Below are positions 57,896 to 64,000 of a stretch of DNA of 64,000 nucleotides, piece after piece. This DNA is from an uncultured Chloroflexia bacterium. Its GTDB lineage: Bacteria; Chloroflexota; UBA5177. Where the stretch lies: assembly GCA_963737125.1 (NCBI GenBank), contig CAVTRL010000001.1, forward strand, positions 1,758,355 to 1,822,354, written 5' to 3'. How positions within the stretch are numbered: the first letter of the stretch is position 1; every line of letters begins with the position of its first letter. Made by a program: the position numbers and the translations under genes. The notes beneath the pieces were generated by a model that saw nothing but the letters and a program-made list of their open reading frames with translations, had not been told where the DNA came from and did not search any database.

Positions 57896-59138
57896 ATGCG
57901 CAGGCGTGTGTGGTGGTGGGTAACCGTCGCCCTCGTTTTGCTGCTGTGCGCCACATTCGGCACGGCTCGGGCAACGCAGGTTGTGGACCGGAACGCCGCA
58001 TACGGAACTTTCACGGCGGCGCGGACCGTGGCCGTTCATGCGTTGGCATCAGCTTCTACCGACGGGATGCGTTCCAAAGCATTGTCGCCCTTCCAGGCCC
58101 GTGCGGCCCAGCTTGCGCGGCGGCCGGCTCCGCCGAGCACTCCGCTCTGGGACACCGCCAGCGCGGCCTACTACCGTGCCCTGGCGGCCGACTACCGCGT
58201 ACTGGCCCGGCAGGTGAAGGCGGCAGACAAACTTCAGCGGATACGGTCCCGACACGCTGCGACAGGTGCGCTCACGACTCTGGGGCGACTTATCACGATC
58301 GCGGCTCGTCTGGATCTCGATACCTCGGAGGCAGTGAACGTGCAGAAGGCGCAGCAGAGCGCTCTCTCGAGCTCGACGTCGACGCGGTCGAGCAGGGCAG
58401 TGCGGACCGCCGTGCGCGCCGAAGTGCTCAAGCTGAGCTCCGTGGTGGAGGCACGAAAAGCGGCGTTTAGCAGCGTCCTGTCGAAATCGGGCGGAACGCT
58501 CGCCGGAGTGCAAACACTCGCCGATACGGAAGCCAACGAGGCGCAGAGCCGGCTGTCACTGCTCTCTCTACTGACGACACGATCCTCGGCATATTCGAGC
58601 ACCGTCACCGGGCTGGTGAGTGCAATCCATGACCAAACGACGGTAGCGGGCGCGGTCGACCGAGAACTTGCCCTCGAGGACGAGCTACAGCGCATCGACG
58701 CGGATTATGACCGTACCATTCCCGCCAAGATGATCGTGGTTTCAACGGAAAATCAGACCGCGACTATGTACGAGAAGTCGACCGCGGTGTACTCGACGGT
58801 GGTCACGACGGGCGGGCCGGAGCTCCCCACGGACCATGGCGTGTTCCACATCTACTTCAAAGCGAGCCCGTTTGTTTTCCACTCGCCGTGGCCCATCGGG
58901 TCGCCGTACTACTACGATCCCACGCCGGTACAGTTCTGGATGCCGTTCGACGGTGGCGAAGGGCCTGCATGACGCATCGTGGCGGTCGAACTTTGGCCCC
59001 GGGTCAAACCTGGCGCCGACCGATCTCGGAAACGGCAATACTATTCTGGGGACACATGGTTGCGTCAATCTGCCGTTCGCCGCGGCTCAATTCATCTGGG
59101 ACTGGGCCCCGGTGGGCACAACTGTTGTTGTGACGTAG
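57896..59138 (+). CDS. L,D-transpeptidase (YkuD domain) with N-terminal signal peptide; frameshift near 58965
   Basis: ATG at 57896 with SD GAAAGGGAGGA; C-terminal catalytic ..ILGTHGCVNLP.. lies in a second frame (track ORF 58836..59138). Confidence 0.65.
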
Positions 59139-60804
59139 ATTCGGTCCGAGTCGGCAGCATGGGGATCGTAGATGCCTCGACTCCCGGGCCGCGTCTATTG
59201 CTTCGTGGATAGCCGGCATCGACGTGGCGCATGACGCCCGTGCCCGGGTCGGTGGTCAGTACGGTTGAAGTCGTTCCGCCGCCTCGTCGGAGCCATCGGC
59301 CACGACCACCATGCCGGCATGGAGAGAGTAGCCGATGCCGACGCCTCCGCCGTGGTGGAACGAGACCCACGACTGGCGCCGGCTGCGGTGTTGACCAGTG
59401 CATTGAGAATCGGCCAGTCGGCGATGGCGTCGCTGCCGTCCCTCATGGATTCGGTTTCACGATTGGGCGATGCCACCGATCCCGAGTCGAGATGATCGCG
59501 GCCGATCACGATCGGAGCTGACAATTCTCCGCTGTCGCACCAGATCGTTGAAGGCCAGGCCGAAGTCGGGCTCGTTCCCCGTAGCCGAGCCAGCAGATGC
59601 GCGCCGGCAGATCCCTGGAAGCTGGATTCGCTCGCGGGCCAATCGATCCATCGGCGTAGGGAAGCGTCGTCGCCGGAAACATATCCAGCAGCAATCATCG
59701 GTCCGAAAGATGTCCGTCCGGGTCGCCGGAGAGAGCGACCCACCGAAATGGGCCTTTGCCTCGCAAAAGAGCGGACGAATGTACGCGGGCACGAAACCGG
59801 GAAAGCGAACGCGTCGGCGAAGCCCGGCGTCGAAGGCGTGTTGCCGATGTTGTTGCCGTAGTCGAAGGTCACCGCGCCCCGAGCGCTGCAACGTCGAGCA
59901 TGGCTCGACGTGTTCGGTTACGGTCGCTGCGCGCTAGTTCGAGATAGCGTTCCGGGTCAGACGCGCGCAGTGGCAGCGGCCTGTTCGCACAGTCATGCCG
60001 ACGGGCACATACCCGTTGAGCAGGTCGTGCGCCGAGGTTTGATCGGTCAGAATATCCGGCGTGACGCCGCGTGCGATCAAGTGCGTCAGAAGATCCACCG
60101 CATTGGCTTGCACGCCGATGGAGAGCAGCTTCGCCGGACTGTACGGCGGCTTCGCGCACTGGTCAACGCGCTTCCGTCAGGACGGGGCGACAGCATCGAG
60201 GTATCCGCTTTCGAGGCGGCGCTGCGATTCTGCTGCGTCGACTTCGGCAATCAGCGCGACGCCACCGTTCATGGTGATGGCGAGCGGCTGAGCTCCTCCC
60301 ATGCCGCCGAGCCCGGCGGTGACGACCAGGCGGCCCGCAGGGAGCCACCAAAGTGCTGCCGGCGCGACTTCGGCCAGCGTTTCATACGTTCCCTGCACGA
60401 TTCCCTGGGAACCGATGTAGATCCAGCTTCCGGCGGTCATCTGGCCGTACATGGTCAGGCCCGGCCTTCGAGGTCCCGGAATGTTCTCCCAGTTGGCCCA
60501 GGCCGGAACCAGCAGGGAGTTGGCAGATGAGCACGCGCGGCGCGCAGGTCGTGCGTGCGGAAGACGCCAACCGGTTTGCCCGGACTGGACCAGCAGGGTC
60601 TCGTCGTTTTCCAGCGAGCGTAGGCAGCTCGACGATCGCATCGAAGGCTTCCCAACTCCGCGCCGCTCGTCCCGTGCCACCATAGACGACGAGCTCATCC
60701 GGTCGCTCGGCGACCTCGGGGTCGAGATTATTCATCAGCATGCGAAGGGCGGCTTCCTGTTGCCAACCTTTGCAGGTAAGCTCTGAGCCACGGGGCGCAC
60801 GCAC
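59092..60804 (-). CDS. hutU: urocanate hydratase (many frameshifts)
   Basis: Urocanase segments in several minus-strand frames: ..[35 protein letters not shown].., ..[31 protein letters not shown].., ..[15 protein letters not shown].., ..[49 protein letters not shown].., ..[15 protein letters not shown]... Confidence 0.7.
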
Positions 60805-61525
60805 GGGGCGTGGGCCGTGACTCAGGTGTCATACGGTCCGCGCTGCACCCTGCGGCACGGGGCGCGAGCCCCAGCGGATGACCGCGCCGATGATGTAAAT
60901 GACAGCGGAAATGAGCGCCAAGCCATATGCCGAAGCCACGGCTCATGCCCTGGCACTGAATGCACGCGTACTTCCCCAGCTGGTACACGAACAGCAGGAG
61001 AAGCACGGTACCGACCGTAAGATAGACGATGGGTGTGCCGAACGGAAGTGGCGGAAGTCCGGTGGGAGCCGCAATCGCCGGGTACAACGACCAAAAACAC
61101 GGTGGCAAGAAAGAAGACGATGACGACCACGGAGGCGACTTCCGAATACGTAAAGGCCCACTCACTGTGGGGGCGCGGCACGCTGCTCGTAAACCAGGGT
61201 AAGAACAGACTCACGAGCGTCAACACGCTCGCGACGAGCACGATGTAGTCGCCAATCGATGATGCGCCGCAGGTCAATGAAGCCGCGCCGGCGCGTGGCA
61301 GCGTTACGCATGGTGTTCTCCTCCCACCGATGCCAGCAGGCATGCCTGGCACTGTTACTCCTCGCACAGTGTACAACTGGTGCTCACGGAAGGGTCCCGA
61401 ACGGCACCTTGTGGTAATGTAAAAGTAGGTTTTGACGGCGTAAAACAGGCGACCGGCAAGAATTCCAGGTACGTATCAGCCGGGCGGATGAGAACCTGTC
61501 GCCAGCGTCTATGGCGTGAGGAAGC

Positions 61526-61883
61526 ATGGTTCAGGATTATGTCCCGCTTCTGATCCTCACGATCCTGGCGGGCGGTTTTGCAGTGACCAATATGTTCATC
61601 ACGTTCGTGGTCGGGCCGTGCCGTCCGACGCGCGAAAAGCTGTCATCCGTACGAGTCGGGAATGACGGAGATCCAGCCGCCGAGGCAGCGGTTTCCGATC
61701 AAGTTCTACGTCATCGCGATGCTGTTTCTTCTTGTTCGACATCGAAGCGATTTCGTTTTATCCGTGGGCGATGTTGCTTCGGGTCTTGCACTTTTCAGGC
61801 TTCATTGAAATGTTCATCTTTATAGTCGTCCTCTTGTAGGGTACGTCTACATCTGGAAGAAGGGAGCGCTCGATTGGGAATAG
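61526..61883 (+). CDS. nuoA: NADH-quinone oxidoreductase subunit A (about 3 frameshifts)
   Basis: [20 protein letters not shown].. then ..[10 protein letters not shown] / [12 protein letters not shown].. / ..[15 protein letters not shown] in successive frames. Confidence 0.7.
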
Positions 61884-62446: not shown

Positions 62447-62459
62447 GCGCGCGCGGAGT

Positions 62460-62950
62460 GTAGCTGTGACCCCGCGAGGAGACAGCCGACGGTACTGCAA
62501 GCAAGTGTTCGGCGATACGAGTGCTGGACGTCGTGCAATTCCGGGGCGAGGTGACGGCAGTGCTGGTCGCGCGAGCGCAATCGTAGACGTGCTGCTCGTT
62601 CTGTCGCGACGAACTGCGGTTACGACTTCTGCTCGGACGTGACCTGCACCGATTGGCTCGATCGGCACCCACGCTTCGATGTGGTGTATCACATCACGAT
62701 TCGTGCCGGACACTGGATCCGCTTCCGCCTGAAAGTGCAGACGAACGACGGCGAGCCGGTGCCGACGGTCATTCCGGTGTGGCGGCGCGCCAACTGGGCC
62801 GAACGCGAAGTATGGGACCTGTTTGGCATCGAGTTTGACGGGCATCCCGACCTGCGACGGCTTCATGCTGCCGGAGGGATGGATCGGACATCCCCTGCGC
62901 AAAGACTACCCGCAGACTCAAATCGCACTGCCGCGTCCCAAGAGCCGACA
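62460..62950 (+). CDS. nuoC: NADH-quinone oxidoreductase subunit C (frameshifts; boundaries approximate)
   Basis: ..RFDVVYHITIRAGHWIRFRLKV..ANWAEREVWDLFGIEFDGHPDLRRL.. with N- and C-terminal parts in other frames. Confidence 0.6.
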
Positions 62951-62989
62951 AGGTTAGGCGATTCGATTCCATGGTCACCACCGAACGCA

Positions 62990-64000
62990 CGCGGCGACAC
63001 CATGGTCCTCAACATGGGGCCGCACCATCCGTCGACCCACGGCGTGCTTCGACTGCTGCTGGAGCTCGACGGTGAAACCGTCGTCAGCGTCGTGCCCGAC
63101 ATTGGGTATCTCCACACCGGTATCGAGAAGACCGGCGAGCGACTGAAGTACCAGCAGGTCATCACGCTGACCGACCGCATGGGATACCTCGACAACATGC
63201 TCGACGAGCTCGCGTACGTGCTGGCCGCGGAAAAACTGCTCGGGATCGAGGTGCCGGAACGGGTGAAGTGGATCCGGGTCCTGCTCGGCGAGCTGGAGCG
63301 AATCTCCAGCCACTGTGTCTGGCTCGGGACCCACGCGCTCGATCTCGGCGCGCTGAGCATGTTCATGTACGGCTTCCGGGAGCGCGAAAAGATACTCGAC
63401 ATCAAAGAGACCATCAGCGGCGTCCGGATGATGACGTGCTTCATTCCGCATCGGCGGTTTGATGGCCGATCTACCGCCGGAGTTCGAGCCCAAGGTCCGC
63501 GATTTTCTGAAGATACATGCCGGCCCGCATCGACGAATATCGAGGAGCTGCTGACCGCGCAACGAGATCTGGCTGGAGCGCACCAAAGGGGTCGGAGTCA
63601 TCCTGCCGGCCGAGGTAGCGCATCGAGATGGGCTGTTCCGGACCAACGCTGCGGGCTTCCGGCGTGCCGTACGACATCCGGCAGGAGACGCCGTACAGCG
63701 GCTACGAGAACTTCGACTTCGACGTGATCGTCGGCGAACACGGGGATGTATACGACCGGTTTCTAGTGCCGGGTGCGGGAGATGCGCGAGAGCCTGCGCA
63801 TCATCGAACAGGCGACTGGACGGAATGCCGGACGGCCCGTGGCGAATCGACGACCGCAAGATCGTCCCACCGCCAAAGGATGAGATCGTCACGAGCATGG
63901 AGTCGCTGATCCACCATTTCAAGCTGTTCACGGAGGGTCTGAAGCCTCCGGTCGGCGAGGTGTACAGCGCCATCGAGGGCGGCCCGAGGGGAGATGGGGT
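62990..64000 (+). CDS. nuoD: NADH-quinone oxidoreductase subunit D (partial, runs off window; frameshifts)
   Basis: ..[38 protein letters not shown].. then ..[32 protein letters not shown].. in another frame. Confidence 0.7.

Follow-up and report, generated by a model that had tools for sequence, protein, structure and literature searches.

The last 5 kb of a 64,000-nucleotide stretch of DNA from an uncultured Chloroflexia bacterium (contig CAVTRL010000001.1, positions 1,758,355 to 1,822,354; the whole stretch is called the window in the following) encode part of an L,D-transpeptidase, urocanate hydratase (hutU), a small membrane protein and the complex I subunits NuoA to NuoD, and the reading frames of all seven genes are broken. 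With a probability of roughly 0.93 we regard this block as noise in the assembly consensus that consists of insertions and deletions (indels) only, and not as pseudogenisation. The indels form a spectrum of single bases with an excess of insertions, the codon structure is kept, substitution decay is absent and the orthologues of a relative are intact; from these observations we infer a technical cause.

As main reference for the analysis served a metagenome contig (CAAGKR010147549.1, 4,252 bp; L081 in the following), which is collinear with positions 59,489-63,771 of the window at 73-78% DNA identity. In a metagenome scan it was 95% identical over the N-terminus of NuoD and thereby much closer than the matches obtained from one genome per species, among which no NuoD exceeded 71% amino acid identity, the best one belonging to a Chloroflexota metagenome-assembled genome. 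A protein search with hutU reached a top identity of 82% and did not yield a second assembly of the same species. For valyl-tRNA synthetase (ValRS) the best relatives were 73% identical, the named ones again being Chloroflexota metagenome-assembled genomes. The gene order of L081 (hutU, membrane protein, nuoA, nuoB, nuoC, nuoD) is that of the window, and the co-directional arrangement nuoA-nuoB-nuoC-nuoD is syntenic with L081 and with 80 other loci. In L081 the genes for the membrane protein, nuoA, nuoB and nuoC as well as the first 264 codons of nuoD are all uninterrupted, and direct translation of its hutU gave 434 uninterrupted codons up to the end of the L081 contig.

Frame breaks were counted with a purpose-built protein-to-DNA aligner which permits single-base insertions and deletions. 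As a negative control the intact 2.7-kb valS gene was aligned to references of 73, 67, 64 and 53% identity, resulting in no frameshift call. Between position 58,965 and the end of the window (5.04 kb) 48 breaks were placed securely, comprising 37 insertions and 11 deletions (3.4:1), every one of them 1 nucleotide (nt) in size. With ambiguous stretches included the total amounts to about 50-53. The block and its genes are composed as follows:

58960..64000, both strands: error-dense block with ~50 single-base indels, ~1 per 100 nt, continuing past the window.
57896..59138, plus strand: L,D-transpeptidase (YkuD), with one insertion-type shift at ~58,963-58,966 and no break in the initial 356 codons.
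59150..60825, minus strand: hutU (urocanate hydratase), with 27-28 single-base indels.
60841-61311, minus strand: small membrane protein of 156 codons, with insertions at 60,922, 61,088 and 61,260.
61526..61880, plus strand: nuoA, with insertions at 61,646 and 61,731 and a deletion at 61,837; 84.5% identity to L081 NuoA.
61880..62460, plus strand: nuoB, with insertions at 61,988, 62,148 and 62,158 and a deletion at 62,414; 85.9% identity to L081.
62466..62958, plus strand: nuoC, with insertions at 62,517, 62,617, 62,861 and 62,946.
62968..64000, plus strand: nuoD, represented by its 5' 345 codons up to the window end, with 8 insertions and 0 deletions.

Pfam matches on the raw open reading frame (ORF) fragments of the block identified most of these genes before any correction. 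YkuD was distributed over two overlapping plus-strand ORFs, indicating a split L,D-transpeptidase, three urocanase domains were spread across several short minus-strand ORFs (hutU), an Oxidored_q6 match marked nuoB, and a 362-residue ORF turned out to be chimeric, joining NuoC (Complex1_30kDa) to the beginning of NuoD (Complex1_49kDa). The original prediction, made from the letters of the window, had named an L,D-transpeptidase, hutU and nuo genes in a frameshift-dense block at 58960-64000. The gene identities are borne out by these matches, and so is the block, although its density had been understated. For nuoA about three breaks had been expected, which agrees with our count, and at least one each for nuoB, nuoC and nuoD, where we find 4, 4-6 and 8. 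The claim of at least six frame switches in hutU holds as a lower bound but is a large underestimate, and the small membrane-protein gene with its three breaks had been missed. After frame correction the block genes that belong to Pfam families cover their models end to end in a rescan which took in all of them but nuoD. Before stitching, for instance, YkuD was matched over 3-75 in one ORF and over 101-146 in the next, whereas the stitched transpeptidase gave a single match over 2-146/146 with 72 bits.

The most heavily affected gene is hutU. Compared with L081 it contains 22 breaks (15 insertions and 7 deletions) at an in-frame amino acid identity of 77.5%. Two to three further shifts lie in the variable middle part (60,120-60,190) and were resolved with other urocanases, and three more were detected in the C-terminal part (59,208-59,371) by comparison with residues 432-548 of the Pseudomonas urocanase PDB 1uwl, to which this part is 78.9% identical. 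The corrected HutU contains Urocanase_N (1-127/127), Urocanase (1-209/209) and Urocanase_C (1-195/196), complete and in order, with E-values of 1e-61 to 1e-90. In the deposited sequence, however, hutU does not exist as one uninterrupted frame of ~550 codons, which we argue to be a property of the record and not of the organism. A native stop codon of hutU was found in none of the minus-strand frames of 59100-59190, ahead of the convergent transpeptidase gene, and at least one additional undetected indel is probably located in the last hutU codons. The small multi-pass membrane protein between hutU and nuoA keeps its position in L081 (1322-1810, minus strand), the sole close relative. Once corrected, it is 79.5% identical to the intact 162-residue L081 orthologue; a Pfam search of this protein matched no family.

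None of the genes nuoA to nuoD exhibits an uninterrupted frame, their breaks numbering 3, 4, 4-6 and 8, respectively. The corrected NuoA covers Oxidored_q4 over 3-99/99, NuoB covers Oxidored_q6 over 1-127/128 and NuoC covers Complex1_30kDa over 2-121/124. Corrected NuoB furthermore retains the cysteine motifs for iron-sulfur cluster N2, which we take to be CCxxE ... GxCxxxGG ... GCPP, for example as VPGCPPTP. The range given for nuoC stems from a garbled stretch at ~62,570-62,610 with an apparent stop at 62,584, which probably represents two more compensating shifts. In nuoD the insertions were located at 62,992, ~63,444, ~63,513, 63,541, ~63,558, 63,621, 63,769 and ~63,818. Six of them were obtained against L081 over the first 263 codons (89.7% identity), and the two further ones precede the end of the window, with four independent references concurring. 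In parts with high DNA identity to L081 the additional base can be seen directly, as in nuoD (TTCATTCCGCATCGG vs TTCA-TCCGCATCGG). The nucleotide alignment of nuoD to L081 displays a single extra T at 63,444 and another at 63,541, and two extra bases are visible in that of nuoB. Antisense to nuoB-D lie two ORFs that exceed 300 codons (61919-62902 and 62975-63973, both minus strand), spurious reading frames of the kind common in G+C-rich DNA; they could be mis-called as genes where the true frames are broken.

The breaks are distributed along the block as by a uniform random process. Their spacing is Poisson-like, with a mean of 103 nt and a coefficient of variation of 1.01. A clean stretch of 450 nt at 62,996-63,445 had raised the suspicion of alternating clean and dirty sub-blocks, which was ruled out by this coefficient, a uniform process of ~1 event per 100 nt being sufficient. 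No homopolymer enrichment was observed, the longest run near the events being distributed as at 20,000 random positions of the block, and homopolymer-driven error of the kind known from 454, Ion Torrent or older Nanopore reads was rejected on these grounds. PacBio continuous long reads, considered as platform in view of the insertion excess, were not adopted as such, since the insertion and deletion rates in the study consulted give no simple rule. The block sets in within the 3'-terminal part of the transpeptidase gene, from where it spans seven genes on both strands irrespective of their function. Single-base indels that are independent of context, gene boundary, strand and function are what consensus error would produce. 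Outside the block, frame breaks were mapped over the whole window with a codon-usage Viterbi model, counts of phase changes in third-position G+C content (GC3) per 2 kb being too coarse to locate blocks. Within the first 58.9 kb this map shows about a dozen frame breaks, of which none falls in the 13.6 kb directly ahead of the block (45,343-58,960); the excess in the block is ~45-fold, far above chance.

Apart from the indels, the genes of the block appear to be constrained as usual. Comparison of 1,312 corrected codons with L081 yielded 207, 116 and 685 differences at codon positions 1, 2 and 3 and a ratio of nonsynonymous to synonymous substitution rates (dN/dS) of 0.079, a pattern that points to strong purifying selection on the corrected genes. 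A relative-rate test, for which L001 and P0049 served as outgroups, gave practically equal numbers of unique amino acid changes on the window and L081 branches (44:43 in total; NuoA 2:3, NuoB 5:5, NuoC 11:6, NuoD 6:7, HutU 20:22), so the window lineage carries no extra substitutions. Among 1,489 corrected codons no secure nonsense codon was found. Two apparent stops were encountered, both in garbled stretches, and the one in hutU is resolved as paired shifts by other references.

Given these results, the organism most likely carries an intact, functional transpeptidase, hutU, membrane protein and nuoA-D at this locus. The deposited sequence would then contain random single-base insertions (~3/4) and deletions at ~1% per base, presumably left over from reads prone to indels at places where polishing or the depth of the consensus fell short. 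Low local coverage, a long-read segment without polishing, a gap filled from a raw read or collapsed strains may each have been the cause. Broken fragments are on record from one NCBI contig of 2,349,993 bp, namely hutU pieces of 225 and 173 residues, a truncated transpeptidase, a nuoA piece, the NuoC/NuoD chimera and a piece of etfA (electron transfer flavoprotein alpha), and intact proteins of the window are recorded from the same contig, each as a singleton cluster. Since these fragments are already in the public record, the frameshifts belong to the deposit and do not originate from cutting the window. Local low-quality sequence had already been favoured over decay in the original prediction, and this preference is now supported by the context-free, insertion-biased events of 1 nt, the dN/dS of 0.079, the 44:43 ratio, the lack of secure stops and the similar breakage of polA and of genes of central metabolism outside the block. 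The contig end that the prediction had offered as an example is a conjecture, and the caveat attached to it, that a second intact nuo operon might exist, is no longer needed, as it is the missing substitution signal, and not any indispensability of complex I, that speaks against decay. Some observations weigh against consensus noise. The closest relative is only ~75-78% identical at the DNA level, so the true sequence is not seen directly; a contig of 2.35 Mb points to an assembly of reasonable depth, in which a block with 1% error needs a local cause; and the G+C content in the block is ordinary.

Gene-fragmenting indel errors of long-read or low-coverage assemblies are described, for example, in the Kastor report (PMC12007338) and in a Nanopore R10.4 study (PMC9262707). 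The block resembles such errors in its strings of short ORFs in differing frames, in the restoration of full-length conserved proteins by removal of single bases and in that essential genes are struck as readily as dispensable ones. It differs from the Nanopore indels that the R10.4 study places in homopolymer regions (PMC9262707), the events of the block being unrelated to homopolymers and mostly insertions. Moreover, assembly errors of the kind that is spread evenly along a contig do not share its distribution, as the density is extreme here (~1%) but confined to the block.

An artefact may also have a cause other than low depth. Diverged strains that were collapsed in a metagenome consensus could leave spurious indels at polymorphic sites, a variant of the artefact which we consider possible but unlikely. 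The proteins that were looked up are singletons of one long NCBI contig with relatives that are only metagenomic, which fits a metagenome-assembled genome, and the sharp onset of the block within a gene is compatible with such a collapse too. Nothing in the sequence separates it from low depth, however, and the chimeric substitutions to be expected from a mixture of strains are not reflected in any excess of amino acid changes on the window branch.

Genuine, very recent pseudogenisation would imply that the lineage no longer needs to utilise histidine, nor this module of complex I, perhaps by virtue of a second nuo operon. The disruption of seven adjacent genes, with further disrupted genes in the window, would be in line with this scenario, and an IS630-like element 14 kb upstream might point to a genome in flux. 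We nevertheless judge it very improbable, as it is largely refuted by the absent substitution signal. In mutation accumulation experiments with seven bacteria, substitutions exceeded indels 2.8-9.7 fold (PMC4978911, Table 1), so that ~50 natural indels would bring along ~140-500 substitutions. Simulation on the codons of the block gave 3.2, 7.6 and 14.9 new stops per 100, 250 and 500 substitutions. Substitutions of this number (~3-10 per indel) should have left roughly 4-15 nonsense codons, of which none is securely present, and neither a raised dN/dS nor an excess of replacements on the window's own branch, as relaxed constraint would cause, is seen relative to the intact L081. Small natural indels in prokaryotes are described as deletion-biased (PMC2817411), and pseudogene deletions are reported to occur often, or to be enriched, in multiples of 3 nt (PMC6054270); insertion bias and the strict size of 1 nt in the block are opposite to this. 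Also unlike decay are 27 breaks in a hutU of 1.65 kb whose in-frame identity to its orthologue is nonetheless 77.5%, and the fact that polA is broken too. Pseudogene-rich reductive genomes such as those of Sodalis glossinidius (PMC7067036) and leaf-symbiotic Burkholderia (PMC6054270) are similar to the block in their many disrupted frames, metabolic genes included. True pseudogenes in reductive genomes, however, exhibit substitutions, nonsense codons, deletion-biased indels of more than one base and relaxed constraint on the branch, none of which is found in the block.

If the indels were real in the DNA, they could stem from a local burst of mutagenesis by single-base insertions that extends across 5 kb or more and is so recent that substitutions have had no time to build up, or the cell could restore the frames of the transcripts by a novel kind of editing or recoding; both together we consider extremely unlikely. 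Taken by itself, the proposal that the DNA is correct and that expression is rescued by dense programmed frameshifting or by insertion/deletion editing of transcripts is hardly conceivable: the perfectly conserved corrected frames, which recoding would predict as well, are the sole point in its favour, whereas ~37 deletions and 11 insertions would be required at sites without a common motif or homopolymer, and the breaks are limited to the block while neighbouring genes and the L081 orthologues need no such rescue. We know of no recoding or editing system of this density in bacteria. In the mitochondria of Physarum, insertional RNA editing supplies transcripts with nucleotides which the DNA lacks. 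The mitochondrial genes of Physarum thus share with the block the dense single-base frameshifts in the DNA and the conserved encoded proteins. In Physarum, however, all genes of a eukaryotic organelle are concerned and bases are missing, whereas the block belongs to a bacterium, mostly has extra bases and has a relative with normal genes.

Consensus noise, as preferred here for the block, may extend to sparser breaks in the remainder of the window, which are likewise mostly insertion-type:

23696-26561, plus strand: polA (DNA polymerase I), with one insertion-type shift near 25013, within the 3'-5' exonuclease domain.
29468-30590, plus strand: etfA, with insertion-type breaks at 29757, 29872, 30161 and 30315 and a deletion-type break at 30465.
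33767 (region 32923-39432), plus strand: acyl-CoA dehydrogenase, one break.
34877 and 35033, plus strand: second acyl-CoA dehydrogenase, two breaks.
37633, plus strand: methylmalonyl-CoA mutase, one break.
39033, plus strand: PduO-type cobalamin adenosyltransferase, one break.
43977-45343, minus strand: IS630-like transposase (HTH_29, HTH_32, weak DDE_3), with -1-type junctions at ~45071 and ~44845.

With the exception of those in the transposase, these breaks were confirmed by continuous Pfam matches across the junctions. The overlapping polA ORFs 23738-25240 and 24603-26567 gave, after stitching, a continuous PF01612 match over 3-172/173, and stitched EtfA covers the ETF and ETF_alpha models in full. 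For the acyl-CoA dehydrogenases, the mutase and the adenosyltransferase full-length Pfam coverage was obtained only once the fragments had been stitched. The breaks in etfA presumably correspond to a first frameshift-dense block, to which the one analysed here had been counted as the second in the original prediction. The junctions in the transposase could be due to genuine decay, to programmed frameshifting or to consensus noise as in the block.

By the codon-usage model two stretches (39880-40556 and 41526-42007), located in or beside a minus-strand ORF of 654 codons (40545-42509), are rated non-coding, which could be due to atypical composition or to further undetected frame problems. The G+C content is ~62% throughout the whole 64-kb window. 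Rfam and tRNA scans gave no match in the block; the only Rfam/ARAGORN matches of the window are tRNA-Glu(CTC) at 28440-28516 (plus strand), tRNA-Leu(GAG) at 38706-38793 (minus strand) and tRNA-Pro(CGG) at 50728-50804 (plus strand).

Renewed polishing is needed for this region and probably elsewhere in the 2.35-Mb contig; until then studies of gene loss should leave the region aside. Broken fragments of the block, for example the 362-residue NuoC/NuoD chimera, are already public as singleton "proteins". The finding bears on the quality of the data and not on the biology of the organism: read literally, the deposited sequence would imply the loss of histidine utilisation and of the complex I subunits NuoA to NuoD in a deep-branching Chloroflexota-like organism, and metabolic reconstructions as well as pseudogene counts would inherit this false gene loss.

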